A DNA stretch of 57,165 bases from an uncultured virus (IMG/VR IMGVR_UViG_3300042453_003546) (taxonomy: Duplodnaviria; Heunggongvirae; Uroviricota; Caudoviricetes): the IMG/VR virus record IMGVR_UViG_3300042453_003546. The stretch is one strand, 5' to 3'. Each line of letters starts with the position of its first letter. Position 1 is the stretch's first letter. Of the stretch, positions 1 to 56,937 are shown piece after piece. The translations under genes and the position numbers were made by a program. The notes under the pieces were generated by a model. The model was not told the DNA's origin. It was given only the letters and a program-made list of their open reading frames with translations, and did no database searches.

Positions 1-312
1 CTTTGCAGTACATTCGTCAGCATATATATCCAATGCTGAGGAGATGATACTATCTGTATCCATTGCCTCATAGTCTCTAAACAACTCCAAACGAGTGTAT
101 AGTTGTAATTGACCTGCATGATATGAGTAGCCTGGAATAGAAGAAAATAATCTTGAGAATCTGTCTATTCTTCTATTTGTGACGATGTTGCCGTCTGATT
201 GAATTCTTGCTGTGTCTATGACCTTTAGTTGATTACCACCCACATTACGAATAATTACATCCGTACTGAATAGTTTTCTTAATCTACTAAAAAGTGTTTT
301 GTTTTCGGCCAT
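1..312 (-). CDS. Portal protein, T4 gp20-like (5' part; runs off window)
   Basis: Manual translation MAENKTLFSRLRKLFSTDV...LFRDYEAMDTDSIISSALDIYADECTAK matches the gp20 N-terminal 'Y..M......A.D....E' pattern; directly downstream of terminase. Confidence 0.85.
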   Translation of the reverse strand, partial: MAENKTLFSRLRKLFSTDVIIRNVGGNQLKVIDTARIQSDGNIVTNRRIDRFSRLFSSIPGYSYHAGQLQLYTRLELFRDYEAMDTDSIISSALDIYADECTAK

Positions 313-342
313 TAGTGTTTATTTATAAATAGTCTTGAAAGT

Positions 343-1914
343 TTATATAAGCCAATTAAGGTCCTCACTATTGCCTTTTTGATCTTGCATCTGCCATGGA
401 TTATTATCCATTCTTGGTTTGTAAATTGTTGCTGACGATTTAATTCCTGATAAGGCAGCTCTGTTGATTTCAATTCCTGCCTGTCTAAGTTTTAAAGCCG
501 TATCTCTAACCCACAAACCTTGAGCAAAACTCATTACCAAGTCGTCATTATACCCTTGTGCTGCTTCTGCCCTACCGTTTTTCCAAATGAATACAAAAAG
601 TTCGTCTAGTAATCGCTTACTTCTAATAGTACAGCTTTTTTCACGTATATACAACTCCATCTTAGATATAACTAACGGTCTAGTTTTATGGCTCATTGTA
701 AATCCTGCAACCATATCGGTCTTGCTTGTGAGATCATACCCCTTTGTTAAAAACTTATCGGAGTCAAGTACATCATTCTTGTATGTGTAATATAGGTTTG
801 AATAACCCCTGTCGATTATCTGTTGTATTGTTGCCCAACCCACATTAGCATTCTCTGGTACAAGTAGTGCATCGTTATATTCTGTTGCTACTGCCACAAG
901 CAAATTACCAAAATCCTTTGTCGTTAGCTGACCTTTATATTCGGCCACTTGTCTACACGACTCAACTTCCATTACATGAAATGCCGAATAATCGCTTCCA
1001 TCACCTCTTGCAACGTCCGCTGTTAGTATATAGTTTTTAGTGTAGTCGGGAACTTCCCAAATCCACAAATTATTATCAAACCCTCTTTTTTCTAAAGGCT
1101 CTTGTACGAATGTTTGACTATAATATGCTACTAATTCTGGAGAAACAACTGTATTACCCGAAGTACTAAAATCACAATCACACTCCTGTGCTGCTAATCT
1201 AAGCCCCAATTCGGCATCTTGCCTATCTCTCCATTCTTGATTACGTTCTGGATGTACTTGCCATGGAAGTCTTAAAGTTTTAAACTTGTTTTCACCTCCT
1301 TCTGCCTTTGTCCACATTTTATGGAAAAAGTTACCAGTACCATTTGGTGTTGATAATAATATACCTTGACCCCCAGTAGATAATGTTTGTTGTAGTGATG
1401 CCCATAATTCTTCAGCTCCATCTACGAATGCAGCCTCGTCTATAATGACTAGTGATAATGCTTCCGAACGTCCTGATGTTCCAGTACTTGATACAGCTTT
1501 AATTTGTGATCCATTTGACAGACGAATGGAGAGTTTATTGCTCTCCACAGCTTTTATCTTTAGCCAACTTGGTAAGTGTTCAAACATTACCTTAACCTTT
1601 GTCACAAGGTTTTTAGACGTGTTTTGATCAATCGCTACAACCAAGCAGTTTTTGTCATTTTGGAATAGTATCATCCATAACGCATACCCTGCTATCAAAG
1701 TTGAGATACCTAACTGTCTAGATTTTAAAATAATTACCCTGTCGTTTTCTTGAAACTCAAACAGAGTATCTTCTTGGTATGGGTATAAGTGGAAGGGAAT
1801 TTTACCTTTGGTTGGGTGCTGAATCATACAATATTTTTTCATAAAGTATGATGCTGATTTAGCACATTTTACATATTCCTCACGAATAATGTCTTTTAAG
1901 CTTTTTTCTTGCAT
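343..1914 (-). CDS. terL: Terminase large subunit, T4 gp17-like
   Basis: LYPYQ adenine-binding motif, KSRQLGIST Walker A, IIDEAAF Walker B, STPNG, nuclease DVARG.G.DYSA and NDDLVMS; start placed at MQEKS. Confidence 0.95.
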   Translation of the reverse strand: MQEKSLKDIIREEYVKCAKSASYFMKKYCMIQHPTKGKIPFHLYPYQEDTLFEFQENDRVIILKSRQLGISTLIAGYALWMILFQNDKNCLVVAIDQNTSKNLVTKVKVMFEHLPSWLKIKAVESNKLSIRLSNGSQIKAVSSTGTSGRSEALSLVIIDEAAFVDGAEELWASLQQTLSTGGQGILLSTPNGTGNFFHKMWTKAEGGENKFKTLRLPWQVHPERNQEWRDRQDAELGLRLAAQECDCDFSTSGNTVVSPELVAYYSQTFVQEPLEKRGFDNNLWIWEVPDYTKNYILTADVARGDGSDYSAFHVMEVESCRQVAEYKGQLTTKDFGNLLVAVATEYNDALLVPENANVGWATIQQIIDRGYSNLYYTYKNDVLDSDKFLTKGYDLTSKTDMVAGFTMSHKTRPLVISKMELYIREKSCTIRSKRLLDELFVFIWKNGRAEAAQGYNDDLVMSFAQGLWVRDTALKLRQAGIEINRAALSGIKSSATIYKPRMDNNPWQMQDQKGNSEDLNWLI

Positions 1915-1924
1915 ATGTAACCTT

Positions 1925-2341
1925 TTAGCGTAATAAGAATCCAACTATGGTTGTGATCGTAACAACACCAACCGAAATTCCTAAAAACTTGACTGTTCTC
2001 TTTAAAGCCTTTTTATCTTTTTCTAAGCCAAGAACAATATTATTGTATAGTGCCTCTTTTTGCTCATACATACGTATTTGCTCATTATAGGCCTGAACTT
2101 TGATTCTGTGGGAAGTAATGATGTCGTTTTGAGAGCTAACTATTTGGTCTGTTAGACGCAGCTTTTCTTGGAAGAGCTCCAATTCCTTTTTTGCTAAATC
2201 TCCTTCAAGAAGGTCTACTACAACTCTTCTTGAGATATCACACGGCAAGCGTGTTTCGCAACTATCTAATGTAACGGTTTGCGAAAAAGCTGTCGAGTTG
2301 AGAAGGAGTGTAATTATAAGCGTCTTTAATCCTATCTTCAT
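1925..2341 (-). CDS. Secreted coiled-coil protein with C-terminal TM helix (spanin-like)
   Basis: Signal peptide MKIGLKTLIITLLLNSTAFSQ, coiled coil, C-terminal hydrophobic helix; overlaps upstream gene by 80 nt. Confidence 0.5.
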   Translation of the reverse strand: MKIGLKTLIITLLLNSTAFSQTVTLDSCETRLPCDISRRVVVDLLEGDLAKKELELFQEKLRLTDQIVSSQNDIITSHRIKVQAYNEQIRMYEQKEALYNNIVLGLEKDKKALKRTVKFLGISVGVVTITTIVGFLLR

Positions 2342-2615
2342 ACTCTTTGCGTATTGTTGCAATCTTTTTATCAACTTTGTTTATTTCTGATTTATAATAG
2401 ACTATACGACTTTCGTAAGTATTTATCAAGGAATCTTGCTTTAATTGCACTTTACGTAAATCACTTATCTTTGCAGTAAGGCTGTCAATTTTATCCTTAT
2501 CGTCTTTATATTTGTCTACGTAATCATTTTTACCTTTATCAAAAAATATTACATACACAGACAAACCAACTATGATTGATGCAAGTATAACAATTATAAC
2601 TCGTTCCAATTTCAT
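2262..2615 (-). CDS. i-spanin (Rz)-like membrane-anchored coiled-coil protein
   Basis: N-terminal TM helix followed by long coiled coil; overlapping gene pair architecture. Confidence 0.55.
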   Translation of the reverse strand: MKLERVIIVILASIIVGLSVYVIFFDKGKNDYVDKYKDDKDKIDSLTAKISDLRKVQLKQDSLINTYESRIVYYKSEINKVDKKIATIRKEYEDRIKDAYNYTPSQLDSFFANRYIR

Positions 2616-2794
2616 TAGAATCGTGTTTCAGTTTTAGCTTTGTAGTTTGTATCTACGTAGTTAAAAAAATCCTTTTTCTTTTCACCACTTAATTCAGCTG
2701 GTGACGAAATATCAAATTTTTTCATTGCTTTTTTAAAAAACTCCTGATACTCTGTATCTTCTTTTAGTCGTTTAATGATGTGTGATGTTTTCAT
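2615..2794 (-). CDS. Small conserved T4-like phage protein, 59 aa (not in ORF track)
   Basis: MKTSHIIKRLKEDTEYQEFFKKAMKKFDISSPAELSGEKKKDFFNYVDTNYKAKTETRF; TAATG overlaps with both neighbours. Confidence 0.8.
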   Translation of the reverse strand: MKTSHIIKRLKEDTEYQEFFKKAMKKFDISSPAELSGEKKKDFFNYVDTNYKAKTETRF

Positions 2795-3111
2795 TATCGT
2801 ACAGTGTTGTTTCTTACCTGCTTAAGTATATTTAATTTTGACTCGTTTGATGATGTAAAAGTGTCTACAATGGTACTAAGCATTTCTACTAGATCATCAT
2901 CACCTACATTATCAGTACTACTTCTCAGCTTTCTGATAAAATAGTTAAGTGCTTCCTCAAAATCAGCACTCATTCCCTCTTCTTCCGGTTGTGGCTCTTC
3001 TTGAGGTACCTCTTCGGTTTCTTCAGCTTCCATCAGTCTAGTGATCTCTTTTCTAATTAACTGACGTAGTTTATTTTCTACTAGTGGTTTTTTGATTGTA
3101 TTCTTTTTCAT
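2794..3111 (-). CDS. Acidic protein with LRQLIRKEI..LME leader, probable head core/internal protein
   Basis: Leader motif followed by Glu-rich linker; TAATG coupling. Confidence 0.65.
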   Translation of the reverse strand: MKKNTIKKPLVENKLRQLIRKEITRLMEAEETEEVPQEEPQPEEEGMSADFEEALNYFIRKLRSSTDNVGDDDLVEMLSTIVDTFTSSNESKLNILKQVRNNTVR

Positions 3112-3527
3112 TATTGTTTATCTAAAAGGTCAACAAAATTAGTTGTTTTTGCATCAAAGTTTTTCTTATCTTTATTGTCAAACATCATACGTTCAATTTG
3201 ACCATTCTTTTGTTTCATTTTACACACTGTAGCATCAAATTGTTCAAGACCTGATAAAGTGTAAACGATTCCAAATGTAGCTTCTTTTTCTGTTACCTTA
3301 GCAAATAACTTTGCATCTGTGATAATCATATCCAGCATACCAAAATCATTTACATCAGCTACAAAAATCATTTGTTCGCCCTTGTTGCCAATATATTTGA
3401 ATACTGGTCTATATCCATGTACAGCTTGAAATTCACGGAAGTATGGAGTTGCGATCATTTCTGGTTCAGTAGCCGATACATCCTCAACTGCAAGCTCTTT
3501 TAATGGTATTAGGTTTATAAGTTTCAT
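3111..3527 (-). CDS. Hypothetical protein with MKLINLIPLKE leader
   Basis: ORF track; TATTTATA motif upstream. Confidence 0.75.
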   Translation of the reverse strand: MKLINLIPLKELAVEDVSATEPEMIATPYFREFQAVHGYRPVFKYIGNKGEQMIFVADVNDFGMLDMIITDAKLFAKVTEKEATFGIVYTLSGLEQFDATVCKMKQKNGQIERMMFDNKDKKNFDAKTTNFVDLLDKQ

Positions 3528-3554
3528 TGTTATTATTTTATATAAATATACACG

Positions 3555-3968
3555 TTAATCTTTAATTGGTCCTCCAACTACCCAAGCATCACAAGTTCTC
3601 TTAGCTGCGCACTTAAATTTTAAAAACCTACAGTAACCTAATTGACCCGCTTTAATTACGTCAAATGGATCCTCACTACCCTCATCATTACCTATTCCTG
3701 TTGCAATGCAGTTTAGTGTTTTTTTAGTAATATCAAACGCAGCACAGTTTCCACACAAAGCCTCTTTTGCTTCTTCTACCGAATCCAATTGCCACATCTC
3801 CACTTTTTTATTCCAAAACTTTTCATTTGGCTCATTAGGATTCAATGGACCATAGCCATACTCTTGAATACCCTTTTGTCTATTTTTTAAATTTAGACCA
3901 ATATCTTGAGTGGCTGGTGGGCATTTTGCTTTTTCAGCTTCCAATAATAAATCAACTAGTCTTATCAT
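3555..3968 (-). CDS. Cys-rich metal-binding phage protein with MIRLVDLLLE leader
   Basis: CPPATQD, CGNC, GYC, C...RTCDAW. Confidence 0.75.
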   Translation of the reverse strand: MIRLVDLLLEAEKAKCPPATQDIGLNLKNRQKGIQEYGYGPLNPNEPNEKFWNKKVEMWQLDSVEEAKEALCGNCAAFDITKKTLNCIATGIGNDEGSEDPFDVIKAGQLGYCRFLKFKCAAKRTCDAWVVGGPIKD

Positions 3969-4168
3969 AATGATCTAAGTATTTTACGAATTTCTAGACG
4001 CAAAATTTCACGCAAGGTTGGTTGGGTACTTTCGTTTGCTTGGATATGCAAAGCTGCTAAGTACTTACGCAATGCTTCTTTGTTGCCATCAGTACATCCA
4101 ACTTTTTTTTCTGTGTCTTTCTTATATACACAGTATTTGTCTCCTACTTTTTTGTGTGTATATGGCAT
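3965..4168 (-). CDS. Small basic phage protein
   Basis: MPY..KK.GDKYCVYKK...GC; C-terminal LREILRLEIRKIL. Confidence 0.7.
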   Translation of the reverse strand: MPYTHKKVGDKYCVYKKDTEKKVGCTDGNKEALRKYLAALHIQANESTQPTLREILRLEIRKILRSL

Positions 4169-4170
4169 TA

Positions 4171-4653
4171 TTATTTTCCTTTTAGTATTTGACTTACTGG
4201 TTTAGTTGACCACATTCTACAGCTCCAATATCCTGCAGAAGTTCTATCCTTCTTTTGTGAGCATTTGTGACGTGCTCTAAAGGATCTTCTACGTTCTGGA
4301 TCATCTCTTTTGATAGATAATCCTTTATCACCAAAATTCACCTTAACTACATTACCGGCATCGTTCTTAACATAAACTTTATACTTTTTCACATCACCTT
4401 TCATTGGCTTACCTAACTTCACTTCACGGCCTTGATATTCAGCCTCACTCAACATAAACTTACCTGCCACAATATCCTCTAATAACGCTAATGCACATAT
4501 CTCACATAGGGTTACCTCTTCGTTGGCAGCATTGATTTTTTTTGCAGCTGCAACTGCCTTTTTATACGCTTCTGAACCTTTGCGAGCTGGCTTCTCACCT
4601 CTCGCTTTTTTTGCTCTAATATTATGCCAAAGGCCTTTTGATTCTTCGTTCAT
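4171..4653 (-). CDS. Conserved basic phage protein (RARHKC...YWSC family)
   Basis: GLWHNIRAKKARGE module plus AEYQG...VNFGD...RRSFRARHKC...AGYWSCRMW; start placed at MNEESK. Confidence 0.75.
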   Translation of the reverse strand: MNEESKGLWHNIRAKKARGEKPARKGSEAYKKAVAAAKKINAANEEVTLCEICALALLEDIVAGKFMLSEAEYQGREVKLGKPMKGDVKKYKVYVKNDAGNVVKVNFGDKGLSIKRDDPERRRSFRARHKCSQKKDRTSAGYWSCRMWSTKPVSQILKGK

Positions 4654-4654
4654 C

Positions 4655-5266
4655 TTAGTGTTTATGTAAATGTGCATTCAATACACCACCTATTGCAGTA
4701 GCATGATTACTTATTGTGTGTAGAAAGTCTGCGTTTAGTTTAATTCTCTTTCTTGTATAATCCACCGCCAAAACTCCAATAAACTTATCATCTACTGTTT
4801 TGATTGCAAACAAATAACTAGATTTTGTACCTGCCTCTTCTGCTATGTACTTCAACCCATAAGTTGCTACAGTTTCATCTTTGTAATCTGGGATTTCAAT
4901 AATCTCTTTATCAAGTAGCTCATTGATTGGTTTACTAAACAAGCTAACTGGAATATTTTGGAAGTTACCTTGAATTGATTTCACATTAGCCTCTACCGTC
5001 TCATACACCATACTAAACTTTGCTATTGACTTCCCAGTTGGATAAAAGTGACCTCCGTTATGAAATTGTGCCAACCATACACGATCCGCTGCAAATTCAT
5101 GTTTAATGAAGTCTAACTTATTAGTAACTTTTTCACTGATGTTTAGTGCATCGGTTACCATATCACCCTTCACTCTTCGTCTATCAATACCATACTTAAT
5201 TAGAAGCAATAATACTGGCCCTAACACCCCAGTAATAAAAGCTACAAGAATAGTCGAATCAATCAT
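4655..5266 (-). CDS. Single-TM plus GAF-like domain protein, candidate T4 T-type holin
   Basis: N-terminal TM helix; ADRVWLAQFHNG...KSSYLFAI...FIGVLAVDY GAF pattern. Confidence 0.55.
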   Translation of the reverse strand: MIDSTILVAFITGVLGPVLLLLIKYGIDRRRVKGDMVTDALNISEKVTNKLDFIKHEFAADRVWLAQFHNGGHFYPTGKSIAKFSMVYETVEANVKSIQGNFQNIPVSLFSKPINELLDKEIIEIPDYKDETVATYGLKYIAEEAGTKSSYLFAIKTVDDKFIGVLAVDYTRKRIKLNADFLHTISNHATAIGGVLNAHLHKH

Positions 5267-5271
5267 TAGTT

Positions 5272-5766
5272 TTAAAAATTTTCAACGTTTTGTTTTATTT
5301 CGGCGATTACATCTTCCCCAATTTGTTTCAGATAACCTTGATCAGCATCTTTCCATTTTTCAATCAAACCATCTTCTGTGACGTGTGATTTGGATGTTTG
5401 ATCTTGAACAAACTCCTGCACATAATCTTCTAAATCTTTTATAAAACTATTTGCGTTTGCTAATATTTTGCCCTTTTCATACTCTTCCCAATTTCCAGCT
5501 TTCATGATCTCATGCTCCATATCAATAACACAGTTAAAACATCTTTTATGTATTGCCCACATTTTTTCATCTAAATGGTGTTTCATTGGGGATCCACATT
5601 CTGGACATGCTAATGGAGTTAAAAACTCTTTTCGTGCATGGTCCATTTTTGTAACCGTTCTCTTTATACCATTCTTAATAGTCCATAACTTACCACCTTC
5701 TTCCCATTCATCTCCTTCAACACGTTTAGTAGTAATTTTTCCAGTCGTAACATGTAAATTTTTCAT
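5272..5766 (-). CDS. Zinc-finger phage protein
   Basis: CPEC...CFNC. Confidence 0.7.
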   Translation of the reverse strand: MKNLHVTTGKITTKRVEGDEWEEGGKLWTIKNGIKRTVTKMDHARKEFLTPLACPECGSPMKHHLDEKMWAIHKRCFNCVIDMEHEIMKAGNWEEYEKGKILANANSFIKDLEDYVQEFVQDQTSKSHVTEDGLIEKWKDADQGYLKQIGEDVIAEIKQNVENF

Positions 5767-6059
5767 CTTGCTTGTAAGTGATATTTTTCGATAATTTGTT
5801 GAACATTTTTGTCAAATCTACGCAAGGCTCTTCTAAGCTCCAATCTCACACCTTCAGCCATTTTTGCACTTTCTTCACTATCAGCTACACCTCTAAAGAA
5901 CTCTTTTCCTCCAGTTGATGATACACTTATGGTAAAATTAAATTCTGGTGTTCCATCTTCACCAACACTATCAAATCCTGAGTCGTAATGAAGAGTCATA
6001 TTTGTGCTTGGTGATGTGGCAATGGCCTCTTTTTTCTCCAATAATTTTTTTAGTTTCAT
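5763..6059 (-). CDS. Hypothetical protein with MKLKKLLE leader
   Basis: ORF track; ATGA overlap with the downstream gene. Confidence 0.7.
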   Translation of the reverse strand: MKLKKLLEKKEAIATSPSTNMTLHYDSGFDSVGEDGTPEFNFTISVSSTGGKEFFRGVADSEESAKMAEGVRLELRRALRRFDKNVQQIIEKYHLQAR

Positions 6060-6060
6060 G

Positions 6061-7944
6061 TTATCTTTCGAATTTTATATATCCTATAATTTGGTTAATT
6101 GGTGCAAATGCCCCTGTAAGTTTATATAGCTTACCACCGTACTTAAACACAATACCTTCGAGTGGTACGATAGCGTCAAACCCACCCAAATCCTTTAGTC
6201 TCTCCAACTCCCTTTTTAAGAATTTTAATGATGCGTCATCATCACTCATATCTTTCGTAGTCGCTGCTTGCTTAATTTGTGCAATCGCATTATCCAAATC
6301 CTTTCTCATTTGTCTAACACTTTGATCGGGATTGAGTGATACCAGTTGTGATATGTTTTTTAGAACATTGACACCCAATTTAAGGAATAAGTTTTCAAAT
6401 GGTTTAATTGCAATTTTCTTTTGAGTTGCATAATCGGACTTATCAAAACTTAGTACCCAGTTTTTAAAATCCTCATTTGTGATTGCATCACGAACAGCTT
6501 TAATGTTTGTACTTTTATCTGAAAATGCCCAACGATTGGTTAGCTGTTCTATATTCTGTGGTGTAATTTCATAACCATATGCTTTTGCACTAGCCTTTAA
6601 AAAACGCTCCCACCAACGTTGAAGATATGTTGATAAAGTGTCTGAATCTTTTAAATTAAATTTTGATTTAATTTCTCGAACAGCCCTAATCAACTCCTCT
6701 TTTTGTTTTTCGTAATCCTTTGTTTTATTTAAGGTGATAGGATCTGTAACACGAATCTCGTATGTTTTTTGGTTTTGTGCTTCTACTTGACGTATAGCAT
6801 TGTCTAACTGTTTTACTAAATCCGTATTTGTATCCACCACATTACCACTCTCATCATATTCTGTAATGTTATGCAACCTTAGTTGAGCTGCTCCATAAGG
6901 AACAACATTCGCTGTCTCTGGATATAATACTTCAAAGTTGACAAACTTGGAACCATTACCAAAAAATTCTTGTTTTTGTTGTGGAGTTAGTCTATTAATT
7001 GCAGTTTCCATATCCCTCATTGCTTCAGTAAAAGCTGTTTGGATTGGTCCTCTATTAGCAAACATATCCTCTACTTGTTTTAGTGTTAGCGAGGTTTCTC
7101 CAGCATTTTTTAAATGTCCTTTATTTCTTGCTGCTCGCACCTGACCATCCTTATAAGTGACCATTAAGTTTTGACCATCCAACTTTTCTTGAGCAAATTC
7201 TACTTTTCCACTTAGAGCTGCATCAATCATACTTTCCATATCTTTGAAGGACATATCGTAATCTTCGTACGGATGTGTCATATGACCAGCAGCACCACCT
7301 TCCGTCAATATTGTCCTTTCACTGAGGGTCTTTTTTGTCAATATGTTAAAAATTGCTTTCGTTACGGATTCAGGTATGTTTGGATAGTTTGTCTTGAAGT
7401 TGGTATAATCGTTCGCAGCTAAGTCTGCTCTGAGTGTTGATGCACTTATTCCCTTACCGTTTGTACCATCTGTTCTTCCCTTATAATATATTGGAGCTGT
7501 GTCTACAGATAACTCAATTACTTCAACTCCAGGTCTATGATATTTTGCACCTAAAGCATGTCCATCAACAAAGCCTTTTACTCTTGCATAATCCTCTCCT
7601 TTTGAACTAGCACCCAATGCATATGTTCCAGGTTCTGCCGTTTCAATATATTTGTAAGCTGCTCTCATTGGGTTGTCATCAGCTACACTTTCTACGACAA
7701 TATTTGGTGTGTTGCCAAGTAATAACTTCCACACTGCAACACTTTGATCTCTAGTTATTCCATCTCTCTCTTTTGGACCAATTAGCACTCTTACCTCCGA
7801 AACATTTGCTTGACTCGCATATCTTTTGGCTAGCTCTAAATGTCCTGCATGTGGTGGCTTAAATCCTCCAGGCAATAAAACTACAACACTCGATTGCAGC
7901 TCCTTTATAATACTTTCGACTAAATATTTAGATAGTAAATTCAT
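6061..7944 (-). CDS. HxGH (cytidylyltransferase/NMNAT-like) domain fused to ATP-dependent ligase-like nucleotidyltransferase domain
   Basis: GGFKPPHAGH and GISASTLR in N-half; EKLDGQN (motif I), NFEV (III), EGIVFK (IV), LYKLTG (V) in C-half. Confidence 0.75.
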   Translation of the reverse strand: MNLLSKYLVESIIKELQSSVVVLLPGGFKPPHAGHLELAKRYASQANVSEVRVLIGPKERDGITRDQSVAVWKLLLGNTPNIVVESVADDNPMRAAYKYIETAEPGTYALGASSKGEDYARVKGFVDGHALGAKYHRPGVEVIELSVDTAPIYYKGRTDGTNGKGISASTLRADLAANDYTNFKTNYPNIPESVTKAIFNILTKKTLSERTILTEGGAAGHMTHPYEDYDMSFKDMESMIDAALSGKVEFAQEKLDGQNLMVTYKDGQVRAARNKGHLKNAGETSLTLKQVEDMFANRGPIQTAFTEAMRDMETAINRLTPQQKQEFFGNGSKFVNFEVLYPETANVVPYGAAQLRLHNITEYDESGNVVDTNTDLVKQLDNAIRQVEAQNQKTYEIRVTDPITLNKTKDYEKQKEELIRAVREIKSKFNLKDSDTLSTYLQRWWERFLKASAKAYGYEITPQNIEQLTNRWAFSDKSTNIKAVRDAITNEDFKNWVLSFDKSDYATQKKIAIKPFENLFLKLGVNVLKNISQLVSLNPDQSVRQMRKDLDNAIAQIKQAATTKDMSDDDASLKFLKRELERLKDLGGFDAIVPLEGIVFKYGGKLYKLTGAFAPINQIIGYIKFER

Positions 7945-35106: not shown

Positions 35107-35532
35107 TTATGCTGCGTTATTTATCACCTCTACCTGAATTGATCTAGTATCGAATTTATTACCTTCTAAGCTTATTCTCATTGTTATGAAAACTCGATTA
35201 CGATCTGGATCAGTTGTGATAGTGAGCTCATTAATAAATATGTAAGGTAACCAATAATCAAAGCTACTTCTTATAGTATCCTCTATCTTTGGAAGTAGAT
35301 CATCTGAAATATTCTCAAATAGTAACGAACGTAAATCACAACCAAAGTCTGGCTGCATAATTCTCTCACCTTTATTTGTGTAAAGTAGGTTTTTTGAATT
35401 TGCTACTGCCTGATCGATTGTAGTATACGTTTGCTGAAATCCAGCCCCTGTACTAGTCATCATTGGTAGATCAACACCAATAGCTATATCAGGTTCAAAA
35501 TCTAATGGATGTATTTTAATTTCGATTGCCAT
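35107..35532 (-). CDS. Baseplate wedge subunit, T4 gp25-like
   Basis: NLLYTNKGERIMQPDFGCDL..LLFE...YWLPYI. Confidence 0.92.
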   Translation of the reverse strand: MAIEIKIHPLDFEPDIAIGVDLPMMTSTGAGFQQTYTTIDQAVANSKNLLYTNKGERIMQPDFGCDLRSLLFENISDDLLPKIEDTIRSSFDYWLPYIFINELTITTDPDRNRVFITMRISLEGNKFDTRSIQVEVINNAA

Positions 35533-35990
35533 TAAATTCTTGTATTATTTGCAATTGCATCAGCCTTTTTTAAGAGGCTAGAATAATCCTTCATTAACGC
35601 TTGAGTTGGATCTCCCGTCATAGTAGCTCTAACTTCGTTTTGTGATATAGTTTGCTGAGGCATAAAGCTGGGAGGAATGTGCTTTGATGTAAACATTTCG
35701 TCCATACTTGGCCATTCTGCTTCAGGATCTTCGTACGGAGCTTCTTGTTGCATAGCCATATAGGTCTCAGCTAGGATATCGGCTAATGGACCTTTAATTC
35801 CTTTGATTTGTGGAGGTATAACCTTCTTCTTGACCGGTTGTGGTGCCTGCTTAGTTATAGCATTTATTTGTGTTGTTGCAGTTTTACCCTCAACCATAAG
35901 CTTCAGAGGTTTTAGTTCTTCTTTTACTATTGATCGAACTTCCTCACGAATAACCTTACGCATGATGTTTACAAATTCAGTCGCCTTCAT
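35532..35990 (-). CDS. Hypothetical protein with RKVIREEVRSIVKEE leader
   Basis: ORF track; TATTTATA upstream; KDYSSLLKK C-terminus. Confidence 0.7.
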   Translation of the reverse strand: MKATEFVNIMRKVIREEVRSIVKEELKPLKLMVEGKTATTQINAITKQAPQPVKKKVIPPQIKGIKGPLADILAETYMAMQQEAPYEDPEAEWPSMDEMFTSKHIPPSFMPQQTISQNEVRATMTGDPTQALMKDYSSLLKKADAIANNTRI

Positions 35991-45282: not shown

Positions 45283-45528
45283 TTATTTTTTATATTGTGG
45301 AAGGGATTCTAGTTCGTTAATAAGCTCAACCAATTGTTTTATACGCGCTCCAGCAATCCAAGAGTCTCTATTATCGTAATAACCAAGCTCACGTAATACA
45401 GCTGGATCAGTATTTTTAGGATCAAACGAAAAAGCGTTGAGGTTTGGACCACCACCAACGCTTTCCCAACATTTTATCTCCTCTTGTAAAAATTGTTGCA
45501 ACTTTTCTTTAGAGAATAAAACTAACAT
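45283..45528 (-). CDS. Hypothetical protein
   Basis: ORF track; TAATG-coupled to sigma factor gene. Confidence 0.65.
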   Translation of the reverse strand: MLVLFSKEKLQQFLQEEIKCWESVGGGPNLNAFSFDPKNTDPAVLRELGYYDNRDSWIAGARIKQLVELINELESLPQYKK

Positions 45529-48979: not shown

Positions 48980-49062
48980 TTTAAAAAATTGTTTTGTTAA
49001 TTAACTAATAATAATAAATATACTACCTTTTTTTTGTGTAGGCAACACGTTTGCTTTTTTTG

Positions 49063-49435
49063 TGGAGATGGTGGGATTCGAACCCACGTCCAGTCTAGTC
49101 GATCAAGTAAAATTCATTCACAAGTTTAGTACGTTTTTCTTAACGAACAAAATATCAAGTTTGTATTGCTACTCCTACTTGCAAACTGTAGGCTATTTGA
49201 TAAGCTCAAATTACAAAAGCGGTTGGTTCACTTCATTTTATAGGTCTCGTGAGTGATACGAGAGAGACTAAGCTGCAATTGCTAAATCTGCACCTACGAA
49301 TGCCATAGCATCTTCCCAGGTCCAATCAGAAAGTTCGTTGCCGAATATTTTTGTGATAGGTCGTCAAAGGTTTCCATCTAACCTTACTTGCATCATTTCA
49401 AAGAGCGCATCTATCTGTCGATTCCATTCATCCCC
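49063..49435 (-). ncRNA. ssrA: tmRNA
   Basis: 5' GGGGATGAATGGAATCGAC; 3' GTGGGTTCGAATCCCACCATCTCCA; acceptor stem GGGGATG/CATCTCC with G3.U70; internal ORF ending AIAA-stop; 373 nt. Confidence 0.95.
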
Positions 49436-49569
49436 TTATAATATAAATATACACCAACTTAAAACAAAAAACAACAACTATTATAAAATCTATTTTAACA
49501 GAATATAATTTGTATTTCAACGAAAAAGGTCTATATTTATGATATATAATTCACTAAAACTTATAATTT

Positions 49570-49985: not shown

Positions 49986-50337
49986 ATATCATCTGGATTG
50001 TTAATAATATAGTGGCTAATATTAAACTCACAGCAGCTCTTGAATCGATGCCCTCACCTAGAAACACGTTTGTAAAAATGGTAAACACGAGAATGCCAAC
50101 TGCAAAAGCCATAAGTCTTCCAGGCCAAATTTTACCATTCATGCCCTCATATGCATAGTCAGTTGCTATCATTAAAAGGTAGCTAATTGGCACTCCTGAC
50201 AAGCTAATAAGAAATTTATAATTCTTCATCCAAGGCCAAACAAACTGGCCATTAATCTGGATCCATGCTATCATTTGGGCAATGAAAAATAGCACAAGAG
50301 ATATTAAAACTAACATGTTGAAATTGTGTTTTTTCAT
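49984..50337 (-). CDS. Small 4-TM membrane protein (SMR/DMT-like size)
   Basis: Four hydrophobic segments; ATGA overlap with HPRT stop. Confidence 0.65.
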   Translation of the reverse strand: MKKHNFNMLVLISLVLFFIAQMIAWIQINGQFVWPWMKNYKFLISLSGVPISYLLMIATDYAYEGMNGKIWPGRLMAFAVGILVFTIFTNVFLGEGIDSRAAVSLILATILLTIQMI

Positions 50338-50840
50338 TTGCAAAAAATAGCATTTAGAAGTCTTCCTCTTCCATCAGGAGCATCCATTCCATATCCCCAA
50401 ACCCATTCATCATTCATAGGAAAGCCATAAAGATCTACTGGAAAAGGACAGTGATTTTTCTTTAGAAGAACACATGTTTTAACCTCTTTAGCACCTAGCG
50501 ATAGAAGTAGGTTTTTCAAGAATTCGAGTGTCTTGCCTGAATCAGCAATATCATCAAATAACCATACAACCTTATCCTTAATAATATTCGGATCTGGAGC
50601 TTTGTAAAGATTAAATTCCGTTTGCTGTTCACCATCATAGGAACTTACTCCTACAAAATCCACGTATGGATTAAATAATAAGTTTCTACTGATATCGGAG
50701 AAAAAAGGCACAGCTCCTTGAAGGATTGGTGCAAAAACTACTTTGTCTTCGTTTTCTTGATTGTAGAGGGTGTTAAGATGTGTAGCAATACCATCAACTA
50801 CATCCTCGATTTGCCATGGTGTATATAATATTTTATTCAT
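50334..50840 (-). CDS. hpt: Hypoxanthine phosphoribosyltransferase
   Basis: ILQGAVPF, VSSY, LFDDIADSGKTL PRPP-binding motif, LLKK, WVWGYGMD. Confidence 0.9.
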   Translation of the reverse strand: MNKILYTPWQIEDVVDGIATHLNTLYNQENEDKVVFAPILQGAVPFFSDISRNLLFNPYVDFVGVSSYDGEQQTEFNLYKAPDPNIIKDKVVWLFDDIADSGKTLEFLKNLLLSLGAKEVKTCVLLKKNHCPFPVDLYGFPMNDEWVWGYGMDAPDGRGRLLNAIFCK

Positions 50841-50877
50841 ACTATTAATATAGTAAAATAAAATTATTTAGACAACG

Positions 50878-51174
50878 TTATCCTAAAGATTCGGGAGATT
50901 TTTCCTCTTGGGTGTTGTCAATAAAGCTATTGGCTGTGGTAAACTTTCTTAATCCAAGTAAGCTGGCTCCTATACCAACAAAGATAATACTTTGCGTAAT
51001 GATGTCAATATCCTTACTCACAAATACCTTATCGAGACATCCAATTAAAAAACATAGTGTCCCAATAGTGCAAATAATAACGCCCATTGTACCTGATGCA
51101 GAGGTTTTTCCAGATTCGTTTGAGGTCATCTGAGCAAAAGAAAATTTATCAATGCGCTCGAGTAATTTTTTCAT
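50878..51174 (-). CDS. Small 2-TM membrane protein (holin-like)
   Basis: Two TM helices, charged termini. Confidence 0.55.
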   Translation of the reverse strand: MKKLLERIDKFSFAQMTSNESGKTSASGTMGVIICTIGTLCFLIGCLDKVFVSKDIDIITQSIIFVGIGASLLGLRKFTTANSFIDNTQEEKSPESLG

Positions 51175-51177
51175 AGA

Positions 51178-51339
51178 TTATAGTTTTAAGTTAAGTTCTG
51201 CAAAGGCCTTGGTGTAAGCTTCTAAGCGAGTTAGCTTTTCAATTCGGATATATTGTCCAGCTGCTTCTGCTAACTCAACTCCAACACCATTCTTAAAAGC
51301 AACCCATAGCATCTCTTCGATTAAATCTTTATTATTCAT
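51178..51339 (-). CDS. Hypothetical protein, 53 aa (not in ORF track)
   Basis: MNNKDLIEEMLWVAFKNGVGVELAEAAGQYIRIEKLTRLEAYTKAFAELNLKL; TATTTAT upstream. Confidence 0.65.
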   Translation of the reverse strand: MNNKDLIEEMLWVAFKNGVGVELAEAAGQYIRIEKLTRLEAYTKAFAELNLKL

Positions 51340-51391
51340 AATACGTTATGATGGTGTTAGATTAGCAATGTTACTATAATAAATAGGTAAC

Positions 51392-51463
51392 AAAAAAATA
51401 ACCACCCAGGTAGCGACACTTGAGTGGTTAAAAATTGCCGTAACGGCAAACGGTCCTAACCGT
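51392..51463 (-). other. Three-hairpin structured element ending in terminator-like stem
   Basis: ACGGT-TAGG-ACCGT, TTGCCG-TTA-CGGCAA, TAACCACTCA...TGGGTGGTTA-T7. Confidence 0.6.
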
Positions 51464-51474
51464 ATCTTTGATGG

Positions 51475-52074
51475 CTATGATTCTCTTATTAAGACAAATT
51501 CATGCCGATCAATACGCACTCTCCAATTACCTTCAAAACGTGATAGTTGTTTATTGATATAAGCTAAATATAAGCGACCACGTTTTGTTTCATCAGCATT
51601 ATGTAAGCCTTCACCTTTTTCCTTTTTAGGCCCAATGTGAACCTCTTTTACCCACACATTCTTATCCTGTACTAGTTTTTTCACTGTATCAACTACACAC
51701 TCGGTTACTGTAGATATAACACGAAACTGCTCACCAAAGTTGGTGAGTTTTTGTTCTCCGGAGCCCTTAACATCAAAAGCTACTTCAAGTCTAATTTCAT
51801 ACTGATGATCGAGTGTTGCATCCTCAGGAACTTTTCCCATATCTTTGAGAAAGCTTTCACTAGCTGCATCACCATTTATGTAGACTATATAATCTGCCTG
51901 ATCACTACTAAACAAATAAGCGATTGGTGGCTCTAATCCAAGTCGATTTAGCATATCGTCTGCGTAGATTTTTTTCAGCCATGATTCAGGAGTTGAACTA
52001 CCAGTCCATACTTTAAAAGGGAATGGCTTAACACCTTCTCCGATTTCGTTTAATATGTTTGTAAGTCTTATCAT
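51475..52074 (-). CDS. MIRLTNILNE-leader protein, alpha/beta (possibly GNAT-like) domain
   Basis: Leader; FRVISTV...KRGRLY..YI pattern. Confidence 0.65.
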   Translation of the reverse strand: MIRLTNILNEIGEGVKPFPFKVWTGSSTPESWLKKIYADDMLNRLGLEPPIAYLFSSDQADYIVYINGDAASESFLKDMGKVPEDATLDHQYEIRLEVAFDVKGSGEQKLTNFGEQFRVISTVTECVVDTVKKLVQDKNVWVKEVHIGPKKEKGEGLHNADETKRGRLYLAYINKQLSRFEGNWRVRIDRHEFVLIRES

Positions 52075-52613
52075 ACCTTTGGAATACCAACTAATACTTT
52101 TGTATGTTTATGTGTGCCTGATACCAATCTTGTATAACTACCATCAGGATTCATTGTAAGATCTTTATTAATTACTTTACGTATAGTAGCCTCATCATCA
52201 ACATGCGGTAAGCCTAGTTTCTCAGCTAAATCTGGATCCATCTCAGCATAAAAGCCTCTTTGTTTCATTAACCTAATCATCTTCACAATAGCCTCTTTTT
52301 TTGCTTCTGCCGAACCATCTTGACCTAACATTGTCATCTTTGTTCCAGCTGGAGTTTTCTTACCACCCACCACAACATCAGCATCTGGATCTTGATCTAA
52401 ATCATTAGCAACCCAGTAAGTGACATCTGAATTTTTAAGGTCAGCTCCGCTTTGGATTTCAAAATTCCCACCTTTAGCAGCATACGCGTTTGAGATCAAA
52501 TCAGCAATATTATCAGCATAATCTAATACCTTTTGATTAGGTAATTCAACCCACACCTTCTTACCATAATCGTCTGCAAAAGCCTCTCTAAGAAGCGACA
52601 TTAATTTTATCAC
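52071..52613 (-). CDS. MIKLMSLLRE-leader protein (GTG start), possibly GNAT-like
   Basis: Leader; NAYAAKGG...GQDGS..AK. Confidence 0.65.
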   Translation of the reverse strand: MIKLMSLLREAFADDYGKKVWVELPNQKVLDYADNIADLISNAYAAKGGNFEIQSGADLKNSDVTYWVANDLDQDPDADVVVGGKKTPAGTKMTMLGQDGSAEAKKEAIVKMIRLMKQRGFYAEMDPDLAEKLGLPHVDDEATIRKVINKDLTMNPDGSYTRLVSGTHKHTKVLVGIPKV

Positions 52614-52999
52614 ACTGTTAGTTTTTGGTTTGATGTTTGAAAATTCTTTTTACGCATCACTGTCTTGGAAATCAACTCCAGTTGTTGCGTTTTATTATTG
52701 TATTGTAATACAAAGGGAATGTTGATATCTTTTTGCATATCTACAATTACGGCTTCAGCATCTGGTCCTAATTGCATAATTTTTTTGCCGTATTTTTCAT
52801 AAGTTTTTTGAAACACGTTTGTAAGCTCTTGATCTGAGATCGGTTTTAAATTACGCGGATCATTTACTCGGTCAAAAAAGTGTTTTGAAAACTCTATATC
52901 AATTCCTACCGCAGCAAATAATCTATCAGCATACACCTCTAAAGACTCTAACTGAGCCTGCGTTACAACTTCTAGTAATATGTGTTTAAGTTTAATCAT
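52610..52999 (-). CDS. MIKLKHILLE-leader protein, candidate RelE/BECR-fold RNase
   Basis: IEFSKHFFDRVND.R helix motif and terminal ISKTVMRK strand. Confidence 0.55.
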   Translation of the reverse strand: MIKLKHILLEVVTQAQLESLEVYADRLFAAVGIDIEFSKHFFDRVNDPRNLKPISDQELTNVFQKTYEKYGKKIMQLGPDAEAVIVDMQKDINIPFVLQYNNKTQQLELISKTVMRKKNFQTSNQKLTV

Positions 53000-53649
53000 G
53001 TAAACTTTTTAATCTTATCTTTGTTTGCCTGAGCCCAATCCATCCACACTTTTTTAATAGGTGGCCAGCTAACATTATGGAACTCGAACTGTCTTATGTT
53101 ATCTTGATGCCATTGTTCCATTGTTGCATCAAGAGATTGTTTGACCACTTTAGAACGCTTAATCAGTCCCTTAACAAAGGCAGGAACTTCCTCAGGATCC
53201 ACTAAATATTTAGCATAATCATGATGATTGCGACCAGCAACTACAAACATATCCTCAAAGTTTTGCTGACCTACGTGTTCTAATTCATGCACAATTGTTT
53301 CTTTAATTTCAGCAATTAATTTATTCATTGCAGCTGGAAACATCTTAGGATTGTATTCAATAATTAACTCTAGATATTCAGAACTACCACCACCCTCAAT
53401 CGAGTGGCTATACTCTTGTTTTGGACGTTTTATAAAGCGAGCTTTGACTTGAAATTCAGCATAGTCTCCAGCTCTATCCAAGTATATTTCTTTATAATAT
53501 TTCTTATCACCACTCTTAAAAGCATTAACAATATCACGGGAAATAAGTAGTCCAAACTCATCATTACTACGAGCAAAGACCTTATCAGGATCTTCACTGG
53601 TAAGGTCATAATATGCGAGTTCTTTGAGTAATTTTTTGAGCTTTATCAT
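52996..53649 (-). CDS. MIKLKKLLKE-leader HExxH metallopeptidase-like protein
   Basis: TIVHELEHVGQ...YLVDPEEVPAF (HExxH plus downstream E). Confidence 0.7.
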   Translation of the reverse strand: MIKLKKLLKELAYYDLTSEDPDKVFARSNDEFGLLISRDIVNAFKSGDKKYYKEIYLDRAGDYAEFQVKARFIKRPKQEYSHSIEGGGSSEYLELIIEYNPKMFPAAMNKLIAEIKETIVHELEHVGQQNFEDMFVVAGRNHHDYAKYLVDPEEVPAFVKGLIKRSKVVKQSLDATMEQWHQDNIRQFEFHNVSWPPIKKVWMDWAQANKDKIKKFT

Positions 53650-54404
53650 TATTGTTTTTTAGCAGCTAATTGCTGGGATACCCATTGTTTTCCAACTGGA
53701 TTTTGTATTGGTTTACGCATGAAAGAACGCGCAAATTTATCCACTTGAGGATCGATTGAAATAGGTTGGCCAGGTGCAGAATCTTTGTCATTTATAGCTT
53801 CTATAAACGCGTTTCCAAAGTAGCTTTCGTACTCCTTTTTAGCGGCTTGAGCAGCATTCCAAATCTCATCAACAAGACTGGCAGGTAACTTTCTCTCACG
53901 CTTACTATTACGCTCCTGAGCCTTCTCTAAAGGAGTGTTGACAAACACCATAGACGTATCATATCCAAACGTATTTTTCAGCTCTTCTGACTGTCTAATA
54001 ATCTTTTGTGGATCGTCTCCAGTACCATCAATCAATAAGCCTAAACGACCATTGAGATAGATTGCATAAGTGTTCTTGAACAACTCTTTTGCACGTAATC
54101 TTGGAGATCCAGCACCTTGTGTTACCTTCTCAAAATCCTCTGGTGAAAGCGATGCTAAATCTGAAGAAAAACCACCCTTTTTTAGAAGGAATTCAAAGAA
54201 TTTATCACTATTAACATTCTTTAGACCTTCCATAGAAAACCCTGCTTTTGTCACTCCAAAAAGAGCATTTCCTACTGTGGATTTTCCACTTCCAGGACCT
54301 CCAGCCAAGAACACAGCTTTGAGTATTCCTGGGTCGTAAACACCTTCTTGCATCACGTTTGCAATCTCTTCTTTAATAATCCTTTTTAATTGTGATAATT
54401 TCAT
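53649..54404 (-). CDS. MKLSQLKRIIKEE-leader P-loop kinase (zeta toxin/AAA_33-like)
   Basis: AVFLAGGPGSGKS, NSD, IDGTG, FVNTPLE.A.ERN..RER. Confidence 0.85.
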   Translation of the reverse strand: MKLSQLKRIIKEEIANVMQEGVYDPGILKAVFLAGGPGSGKSTVGNALFGVTKAGFSMEGLKNVNSDKFFEFLLKKGGFSSDLASLSPEDFEKVTQGAGSPRLRAKELFKNTYAIYLNGRLGLLIDGTGDDPQKIIRQSEELKNTFGYDTSMVFVNTPLEKAQERNSKRERKLPASLVDEIWNAAQAAKKEYESYFGNAFIEAINDKDSAPGQPISIDPQVDKFARSFMRKPIQNPVGKQWVSQQLAAKKQ

Positions 54405-54655
54405 TGTTTGCTATATTTTATAAAGTATACCGAATCTCCAATTTTACTATAACGAGTGCAAGTTACCGTATCACTTTCATGTGTAATTGCATAAAATTTT
54501 GGACTAATTTCCTCATGAATTCCGCAAGGATTTTTACGAAAAATCTTAACAATTACGCCTTTTTTTACGTCACGAGTATACTCTTCAAGTTGGGAAGATT
54601 TACCACATGAAATAAGTAATAAAGTGATAGTGATAAATGCAAAAAACTTAGTCAT
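54401..54655 (-). CDS. Lipoprotein
   Basis: MTKFFAFITITLLLISCGKS lipobox; TATTTATA immediately upstream of this ATG. Confidence 0.7.
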   Translation of the reverse strand: MTKFFAFITITLLLISCGKSSQLEEYTRDVKKGVIVKIFRKNPCGIHEEISPKFYAITHESDTVTCTRYSKIGDSVYFIKYSKQ

Positions 54656-54686
54656 ATATAAATATTTGTGTGTGTGAAAAAAAGAG

Positions 54687-56187: not shown

Positions 56188-56433
56188 TTAGTCACGTGAT
56201 TCAAATTGTACACTCGGTGCTAACATGACACCGGCACCACTTTGTTTTATGAGCTCAGCTATGGTTTGTATCACGGATTTTACTTGGTCGTTTGTTGGGT
56301 TTTTAATACCAATTTTACTAAGTAGATCCATTGCATCTTGCTCCAATTCACGAAGTGTGAATGCACGTGTTTCTTCGATGGCATCCGGTTCTAAACCAGC
56401 GATTTCTTGTAGTCTGTCTCTTGTTAGTTTCAT
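56188..56433 (-). CDS. Hypothetical protein with MKLTRDRLQEIAGL leader
   Basis: ORF track. Confidence 0.7.
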   Translation of the reverse strand: MKLTRDRLQEIAGLEPDAIEETRAFTLRELEQDAMDLLSKIGIKNPTNDQVKSVIQTIAELIKQSGAGVMLAPSVQFESRD

Positions 56434-56580: not shown

Positions 56581-56937
56581 TTATTTTTTAATGTAAAATG
56601 CACCAACTATACCACCACCATCTAGTATACTGGCTTTGATTACTTTGCCGTCAGGAGATACGCTAGCGTAGCCTTGATAGTTGCTAGAACGATAGATCTG
56701 TTCCCAATCCTTTGTTACACTATCAGGATACTTAGCTTTCATTTGATTATACTCCGGATCTTTAAACATGATGTAAGCATTGTAGTTAGGTCCGAGTGTT
56801 GGTTCAACAACCTTCTTTCTCATTTCGAAATCTTGCATTGGATGTTCACCACCTAGTGTACCCATTAGTCCGCCTGCTTCGTTGAGAGCCTTACGAACTT
56901 CTTCTTTAATGATTTGTTTGAATTGTGATAGTTTCAT
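56581..56937 (-). CDS. Hypothetical protein with MKLSQFKQIIKEEVRKALNE leader
   Basis: ORF track; TATTTATA upstream. Confidence 0.75.
   Translation of the reverse strand: MKLSQFKQIIKEEVRKALNEAGGLMGTLGGEHPMQDFEMRKKVVEPTLGPNYNAYIMFKDPEYNQMKAKYPDSVTKDWEQIYRSSNYQGYASVSPDGKVIKASILDGGGIVGAFYIKK

Follow-up and report, generated by a model that had tools for sequence, protein, structure and literature searches.

A coupled array of leader-tagged, enzyme-like genes in a T4-type lake phage, with probable capsid targeting and head-protease trimming of its products

The array and its leader peptides

We analysed a 57,165-nucleotide stretch of DNA from an uncultured virus of the Caudoviricetes (IMG/VR record IMGVR_UViG_3300042453_003546; this whole stretch is called the window below), which is part of a T4-type myovirus genome (G+C content 35%) with a large terminase gene at 343-1944 and baseplate, primase and SbcCD genes. 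Our subject is a set of five consecutive minus-strand genes at 51475-54404, here named A to E (Table 1). As a sequence-only reading of this DNA had proposed, the five open reading frames run into one another, through the junctions TAATG (A/B), ATGA (B/C and D/E) and GTGA (C/D). A leaderless gene upstream, called lipoprotein-like from a signal-peptide-plus-Cys pattern in its sequence and with no database assignment, makes the coupled chain six genes in all. Overlaps of -1 or -4 are found in 19 of 62 adjacent minus-strand pairs of the window, with about 0.5 runs of four expected by chance; because coupling is so common here, the run of overlaps in the array is unremarkable.

Each of the five proteins begins with a basic/hydrophobic peptide that closes in hydrophobic-x-Glu. 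A leader on every array gene had been claimed from the sequence, and it is indeed there, though in two forms: B to E carry a 10-residue MI(K/R)LxxLLxE peptide ending at residue 10 (LLKE, ILLE, LLRE and ILNE, respectively), and A carries a 20-residue form, in common with the gene that starts at 56937, with IIKE at residue 12 and VMQE at residue 20. About nine further genes of the window start with such leaders, six of them adjoining the terminase, for a total of about 14 tagged genes in 57 kb. Among these, the gene at 6061-7944 encodes a 627-residue protein that has a leader and a cytidylyltransferase-like N-terminal domain, followed by an internal ILTE that precedes another domain; its relatives span 628 to 884 residues, and B or C is present as an extra module in similar proteins.

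The view that the leader is a separable propeptide is supported by both models and alignments. In the two structure models, which were made for C and D, the leader residues (1-8 or 1-10) have pLDDT below 50 and lie outside the fold matches, and are not the integral helix of each fold that the sequence-only reading had named as the alternative. The Glu at position 10 is invariant in all 71 sequences of the D alignment (from 77 hits and the query) and all 62 of the E alignment (from 63 hits and the query), with the preceding residues varying in length and form; likewise, E20-G21 is invariant in six of six aligned A homologues, and the residues upstream differ in length and sequence. Among the first 120 of 313 C homologues, classed by regular expressions, 63 have the MIKL form, 17 a T4-style MKTFxxF start and 40 another, and the leader usually ends at the same junction. 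Homologues thus retain the cargo while the leader changes at the Glu junction, some of them carrying a T4-style capsid-targeting sequence.

Two further arrays of this kind came to light. Paraglaciecola phage PANV1 (gp31-50; L112 358-8210) has about ten small genes with T4-style MK(S/T)F starts, including the C homologue gp42; we found no proteomics in the accessible part of the PANV1 paper. Contig L009 (429-4613) carries roughly nine small genes whose leaders are of RLMELAGL or IIREEV type, one of them a homologue of the 56937 gene. Flavobacterium phage immuto 2-6A has about 20 leader genes on visual inspection, and its gp183 and gp191 contain B and C domains.

Folds of the cargo proteins

The folds that had been guessed from the sequence were largely borne out: a P-loop kinase for A, an HExxH peptidase for B, more weakly an RNase-like domain for C, and two alpha/beta domains, which correspond to a GNAT domain in D and a DUF6934/GNAT-like domain in E. 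The comparisons support the cargos of A to E as mutually unrelated enzyme-like folds.

A matches the Pfam families Zeta_toxin (1.7e-7) and AAA_33 (2.6e-6); the Zeta_toxin match is above the cut-off, yet its best stretch spans just 68 of 199 positions. Aligned with T4 Pnk by hhalign (95.9%, E 6e-9, 138 columns), A shares the P-loop, an Asp (D67 to D35) and RNSKR, and Arg38 is replaced by Phe; the positions compared include those with roles in T4 Pnk (the P-loop, the acidic residue of NxD and the Arg that follows). The C-terminal HAD phosphatase is absent from A; one A homologue (L001) is fused to an NT5C phosphatase, and the A homologues of L090 and L095, judged by their length, probably also have a HAD phosphatase. 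By sequence A is a predicted P-loop kinase of the Pnk/zeta group, with like scores for T4 Pnk (E 0.014) and for zeta (E 0.023), which do not favour one substrate over another.

B has no Pfam match. Its residues H121, E122 and H125 are present in 127 of 127 aligned sequences, which were selected on the motif, and HExxH is found in 142 of 150 unselected hits; together with a downstream Glu (E154, in 98%) this conserved motif identifies B as a putative zincin metallopeptidase.

The model of C has a pLDDT of 65, and its best PDB matches are T4 RegB (Z 6.0) and RelE (Z 5.4), values below the tool's safe range. A Foldseek search of the PDB gave no match below 1e-3, and an Atlas search gave unnamed clusters alone; in BFVD the model matched a 'site-specific RNA endonuclease' (E 3e-4, TM 0.57). 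H40 and T113 are invariant, and an N-terminal helix with the His, followed by a sheet of four to five strands, has the topology of BECR RNases. We predict C to be, probably, a BECR-fold (RegB/RelE-like) RNase.

The model of D is of higher confidence (pLDDT 92), with a best Foldseek E of 8e-5 and 22 matches below 1e-3, acetyltransferases throughout among the matches listed; the matches ranked by Z score (Z 8.8) cover residues 17-180. We regard the modelled GNAT fold as confident and predict an acyltransferase role. Against Atlas structures, E gave TM 0.54/0.74 with DUF6934 and 0.44-0.48 with GNATs, and one of 62 E members matches DUF6934 (E 0.012); E thus seems to resemble DUF6934, and GNATs weakly. 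Searching PDB sequences with profiles of D and of E, and with the A sequence by itself, returned nothing useful, and cultured phages gave no tblastn match to B or to E.

Head module and prohead protease

Contig L137 is 100% identical to window positions 1-6100 and extends into the head module, where it encodes a T4-type portal (PF07230), a prohead protease (PF03420, E 4.5e-26; L137 9258-9875) that matches the T4 gp21 structure 5jbl, a scaffold-like protein of acidic composition and a capsid protein of the gp23 type (PF07068). Given this identity, the same phage encodes a gp21-type prohead protease together with a T4-type head module. Near their N-termini the L137 capsid protein and protease themselves carry QLLKE-54 and QINE-22, respectively.

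The closest cultured terminases are those of Flavobacterium phage immuto and Microcystis phage Mel-JY01, each 55% identical. Leaving aside runs with small shares, five runs, every one from lake water, contain at least half of the array's words, and two of these may be where the DNA came from. By analogy with immuto and with similar lake phages in the accessible text of PMC9723584, the host may belong to the Bacteroidota.

Particle evidence from Agrobacterium phage Atu_ph07

A matches a protein of Atu_ph07 (AUZ94865.1; 38% identical, E 2e-32) that is gp53 by gene order and mass. gp53 has 778 residues, with a leader at its start and hydrophobic-x-Glu sites at four apparent domain borders, and cleavage at these sites is predicted to yield pieces of 27, 23 (the kinase), 14, 17 and 4.5 kDa; the predicted cuts of gp53 fall at residues 9, 253, 459, 583 and 734. 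In Table S5 of PMC6102473 it is recorded with 31 peptides, a mass of 87 kDa and greatest abundance in band 9, in which six of the nine proteins with at least two peptides have masses of 18-23 kDa. Every one of gp53-65 is listed in the particle proteome (PMC6102473), and the members that we inspected have a common leader at the start and mostly overlapping or abutting genes. Presence in particles and low apparent mass are established for the homologue gp53 alone, and for A they would hold by analogy. An early impression that the C-terminal domains of gp53 are E-like was unsupported on comparison. A profile match to gp53 at E 3.7e-87 was set aside as circular, since that alignment had included gp53 itself.

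We then compared leaders with particle membership across the phage, using our own gene calls (854, against 714 annotated) and a mapping of Table S5 to open reading frames by mass and order that covers 134 of 140 rows and in which some assignments may be wrong. A leader position score, trained on 126 leaders of C, D and E homologues with no Atu_ph07 sequence included, picked 27 of 783 called genes; the particle table contains 16 of these 27, compared with 118 of the remaining 756 (P 6e-7). The same score applied to internal residues picked just four genes. A leader regular expression set beforehand, allowed to be one residue shorter, matched four Atu_ph07 genes, all four in the particle table. 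Among listed proteins of at least 28 kDa, 10 of 23 with a leader run low as against 3 of 44 without (P 7e-4), by a leader pattern that was composed after some Atu_ph07 starts were known. The low-running leader proteins suggest head-protease processing that has gone unreported.

Two observations can be set beside these. The stretch that encodes gp53-63 (L114 39484-50000) is a run of published particle proteins with a common leader, and gp44, gp53, gp200, gp213, gp482, gp483 and gp544 are leader proteins that run far under their mass.

Putative cut sites inside polyproteins

The same motif recurs where the cargos are domains of longer proteins. The anchor motif was present in 76 of 80 C loci, and fusions numbered 31; hydrophobic-x-Glu stands at the domain border in 15 of 24 distinct fused junctions, compared with 11% of random windows. 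Among 150 B hits, anchoring was possible for 45; the site is present in 18 of the 20 that are fused and in 21 of the 25 that stand alone, against a background of 12%. The B and C fusions may be read-throughs of formerly coupled genes.

Sites kept at internal junctions cannot be put down to a start-codon effect. This bears on the idea that an A-rich codon bias at 5' ends, together with translational coupling, produced the common starts as a side effect with no function in the protein, which would suit a genome of 35% G+C in which 19 of 62 gene pairs are coupled. The leader is, however, missing from most coupled genes, the Glu is invariant although its codons are not, and the motif both persists at internal junctions and tracks particle proteins, so that we consider such an origin highly improbable.

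Variation among relatives

We surveyed 18 D loci, four HPRT loci and 80 C loci. Across relatives the order of the array is kept and its content varies; gene content is not fixed, but differs among L090, L092, L093, L095, L108 and L110 (Table 1), as the sequence-only reading had supposed. Among the 80 C loci, three lie directly ahead of HPRT with other leader genes upstream, and several from more distant phages lie within arrays of T4-style leader genes, some adjoining the terminase. Gene E was seen in none of 81 loci counted, nor among the neighbours listed at the D and HPRT loci. In L110 the terminator directly follows the D stop, whereas in the window E stands between the D stop and a nearly identical terminator, and the empty site is leaderless; E is therefore gained or lost as a whole gene, at a site with no leader. 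A contig from run X8 differs from window 51440-52074 (gene E) at 3 of 635 bases, and another contig from that run differs over 50300-51286 at 101 of 987 bases; if both represent one strain, E moved recently. A gap in run X8 over most of gene C, with deep neighbours, shows nothing, since no contig joins across it.

From the near-identity of the 5' DNA at 54404 and 56937 it had been suggested that leaders act as recombination handles for the swapping of cargo. The two are close, with 32 of the 38 bases quoted in support of that idea identical and a longest exact run of 11 bases, but nearly identical peptides predict as much: over the leader DNA 32 of 39 bases agree where 29.0-29.6 are expected from codon use (P 0.12-0.18). 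Pooled over the leaders of B to E and of the 3968 gene, synonymous identity is at chance, the codon being shared in 21 of 50 identical-residue codon pairs against 20.1 expected. The leader DNA shows no similarity beyond what the peptides demand.

What speaks for handles is that A and the 56937 gene agree at 41 of 52 bases around the start, that the C/E pair, alone among 11 leader pairs, exceeds the codon null (23 of 30, P 0.008 uncorrected), that one contig (run X14) stays with the window for 15 bases into the 56937 leader and diverges from there, and that the same cargo is found behind different leaders. Contigs of other phages also match leader DNA with unlike sequence on either side. Against this stand the chance-level synonymous identity, the leaderless empty site of E and the persistence of the sites in polyproteins, where no start is required; occasional crossovers within leaders are possible, and we judge it very unlikely that the leader DNA serves as a handle.

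Probable capsid targeting and its alternatives

The genes, their leaders and the separability of these, the protease gene, the variable content and the folds are direct observations. The explanation that we favour, and consider probable, is that the leader targets the capsid and that the head protease trims the cargo; on our best reading the array forms a cassette of variable content whose enzymes are packaged in the head, trimmed by the protease and probably injected, which makes it a variant of the internal-protein system of T4. The short basic-hydrophobic leader would dock each protein on the prohead core, as the T4 capsid-targeting sequence does, and the gp21-type protease would cleave after hydrophobic-x-Glu. 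The trimmed enzyme would remain in the head, probably to be ejected with the DNA and to act in the first minutes of infection, in tasks that might include RNA cleavage or end-healing, proteolysis and acylation, to the ends of host takeover or counter-defence. Cassettes would come and go as whole genes, with peptide-level selection rather than DNA homology holding the leaders alike. Targeting by the leader, the site of the cut, ejection and all targets are what we infer.

Several points weigh against this interpretation. The particle evidence is homologue-based, and A alone has a solid particle-detected homologue, B, D and E having none; Atu_ph07 gp561 as a homologue of C is weak and left open (hhalign 16%, hmmsearch E 0.22, and Foldseek E 0.09 for a 159-residue protein equated with gp561 by length). 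With the paralogous array removed, the enrichment of high-scoring genes among particle proteins drops to 7 of 18, as compared with 115 of 752 (P 0.015, and 0.044 and 0.056 at other thresholds); 11 of the 27 high-scoring genes were undetected in particles, and the score also ranks non-head genes high (window 45283-45528 and several immuto genes). Sequences that are related are not independent of one another, so that the P values overstate. The leader differs from that of T4 at positions 4 and 7, which are targeting residues in T4. The particles of Atu_ph07 were purified with polyethylene glycol only, and the accessible text of PMC6102473 reports no N-termini.

The leaders could instead target the prohead and be cut there on proteins that are not injected effectors: these might serve the core or its assembly, or be passive passengers that are broken down or stay behind in the head. 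Head-module genes bear the same kind of leader in the window phage, in immuto and in Atu_ph07 (gp199-213), and the T4 core proteins gp22, gp67 and gp68 are cleaved to pieces, as described in the accessible parts of PMC9026906 and PMC5694885. The cargos, however, are compact enzyme folds with conserved catalytic-looking residues, they come and go between relatives, unlike core genes, and they belong to the same domain classes that are typical of proposed injected polyvalent proteins in what is accessible of PMC5512222; we hold the core or passenger explanation to be unlikely.

The sequence-only reading had also raised the thought that the propeptide keeps cargo inactive until it is cut, which would make the array a set of antitoxin-free toxins armed in the maturing head. 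The folds are akin to zeta, RelE/RegB and GNAT toxins, and internal polyprotein sites would permit release at maturation. That reading was also right that no antitoxin or immunity gene lies in between, trivially so since genes A to E overlap; PADLOC gave just a weak VakA match for A (1e-4), and a cognate antitoxin or immunity gene is absent beside A to E. Nevertheless, the leaders of 10 residues are of low confidence in both models and interchangeable over five folds, and fold-specific inhibition is unlikely for this reason; A is as close to T4 Pnk as to zeta, and relatives have it fused to a phosphatase; and late-made, injected proteins would need no antitoxin. We consider autoinhibition quite improbable, and capsid targeting with removal of the leader by the head protease would itself account for the absence of immunity genes.

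We also entertain, tentatively and with greater doubt than the capsid-targeting interpretation itself, a general form of it, in which the head protease across T4-like phages is a general processor of injected enzymes. Nuclease, peptidase, acyltransferase and kinase modules would form a common pool that crosses distant lineages, and would adopt the local leader, single-tagged or strung in polyproteins cut at the same site, with some modules perhaps activated by the cut. Were this so, the injected enzyme set of uncultured phages could be read from sequence. Should the tag prove functional in this abundant lineage of lake phages, it would serve as a sequence handle for virion-delivered enzymes of uncultured phages, with five candidates here, and would account for a particle protein in the literature that migrates at a quarter of its mass.

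Comparison with known systems

The principle is already known from T4. T4 gp21 cleaves after L/I-x-E, and propeptides of 10-19 residues send proteins to the core, as set out in the accessible parts of PMC9026906 and PMC5694885; T4 internal proteins include counter-defence factors (IPI; IPIII), and the accessible text of a review suggests that the tag allows T4-like phages to load varied proteins. In T4, IPI, IPII, IPIII and Alt carry a basic/hydrophobic N-terminal peptide of about 10 residues with a hydrophobic-x-Glu end, removed by gp21, on unrelated proteins; these proteins are dispensable, and in this too we liken the tagged proteins of the array to them. A gp21-type protease, gp20 and gp23 are likewise encoded by the same phage here, and C homologues elsewhere have T4-style leaders at the same junction. 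The differences are that the window consensus is MIKLxxLLxE, with a longer helical form and others, several per genome, whereas the T4 starts (MKTYQEFIAE in IPII and IPIII, MKTFKEF in IPI) do not occur in the window and T4-style forms stand only on homologues from other phages; and that the window cargos are enzyme folds and those of T4 small inhibitors.

The gp53-gp65 array of Atu_ph07 (Attai et al. 2018, PMC6102473) is similar in its close or overlapping genes, its common Glu-ending leader and the kinase homologue inside it, and there all members were detected in particles and gp53 migrates far under its mass. It differs in its MRWEQLTE-type leader, in members that look paralogous and in a kinase that is one domain of a 778-residue polyprotein; the accessible text of that paper mentions neither leaders nor processing.

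Polyvalent proteins, with zincin HExxH, BECR RNase, GNAT and kinase domains, have been proposed to be packaged and injected, according to the accessible text of PMC5512222 (Iyer et al. 2017) and PMC7824862. The domain classes are the same, and A, B and C are also modules of large polyproteins, but the window modules are five separate tagged genes, several domains per polypeptide being found in homologues instead; the window kinase is of P-loop type where theirs is of Ser/Thr type, and we ascribe processing to the head protease, not to the zincin. None of the Pfam MPTase, PBECR and LPD families matched the array. The ejection proteins of phiKZ and SPN3US, in the accessible portions of PMC5694885 and PMC9026906, are also cut after Glu and have N-termini common to diverged head proteins, but with an A/S-x-E motif, propeptides mostly of more than 100 residues and another phage lineage. 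In toxin-antitoxin and polymorphic toxin arrays a cognate immunity gene stands beside each toxin, which is not so in A to E.

What is new here is that lineages have cargo in common behind leaders exchanged at a single junction, that polyproteins retain the site, that one cargo is linked to a particle proteome and that a test of DNA handles came out negative. A literature search, covering titles and the starts of abstracts with few subscription papers, found no account of such leaders in this lineage or of gp53 processing.

Other features of the window

Table 1. Features of the array, the rest of the window and related loci.
Feature	Position	Strand	Description
Gene A	53649-54404	-	251 aa; 20-residue leader and putative kinase (P-loop type, Pnk/zeta/AAA_33 group)
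Leader of A, long form	54345..54404	-	closes in VMQE ahead of the conserved kinase start
Gene B	52996-53649	-	217 aa; 10-residue leader and HExxH zincin-like metallopeptidase domain
Gene C	52610-52999	-	129 aa; 10-residue leader and probable BECR-fold (RegB/RelE-like) RNase
Gene D	52071-52613	-	180 aa; GTG start, 10-residue leader and predicted GNAT-fold domain
Gene E	51475-52074	-	199 aa; 10-residue leader and DUF6934/GNAT-like domain
Lipoprotein-like gene, leaderless	54401..54655	-	overlaps A by ATGA; homologues precede A in L090 and L095
Hairpin and U tract	51391..51430	-	likely intrinsic terminator closing the array; fold z -2.6
TATTTATA, candidate late-promoter motif	54657..54664	-	doubtful here, merely 2 bases ahead of the lipoprotein ATG
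118-aa gene	56581..56937	-	long leader as in A; homologue in L009
81-aa gene	56188..56433	-	third leader form (MKLTRDRLQEIAGL type); like starts in L009 and immuto gp41/gp188
Second leader-gene cluster	2615..7944	-	beside the terminase; starts at 7944, 6059, 3968, 3527, 3111 and 2794
152-aa gene	35532..35990	-	long-form leader, within the baseplate region; immuto gp157 has the same place and a like start
T4-type large terminase and start of portal	1..1944	-	PHROG terminase; head module carries on in L137
Related loci L090, L095			lipoprotein-like gene, A (longer), D, then homologue of 53-aa gene
Related locus L093			B, C, D
Related locus L092			same contig as L009; B, C, three other leader genes, D
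Related locus L108			B alone
Related locus L110			HPRT 93%; D, then a leaderless gene
MEVRGY gene	L090 4568-5356; L092 10640-11431; L093 2732-3520; L095 9878-10666; L108 2914-3702; L110 309-1109

A leaderless gene of about 262 residues (MEVRGY start) lies 3' of the array in six relatives and is missing from the window. On the terminator side, the minus strand of 51380-51475 has two small hairpins ahead of the terminator hairpin, and a 75-base element there is nearly unchanged in L110, where the flanking genes differ; this element has no Rfam match, and the terminator-side pattern was found in one of 217 loci. The motif TATTTATA has 14 copies on the coding strand against two on the opposite strand; eight copies sit 12-35 bases ahead of a gene start, that at 331 being 19 bases before the portal start.

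The minus-strand gene at 43609-45279 encodes a 556-residue signal-peptide protein whose C-terminal part looks, by its pattern and with no PHROGs match, like a Bacteroidota type IX secretion sorting domain, and is a hint to the host. The gene at 12029-15214 (minus strand) encodes a single 1061-residue protein in which SbcD-like and SbcC-like domains are fused. ARAGORN detected no tRNA or transfer-messenger RNA (tmRNA), although Rfam identified a phage-encoded tmRNA at 49060-49435 on the minus strand (RF00023, 72.7 bits), with a copy of TATTTATA at 49449 just upstream.

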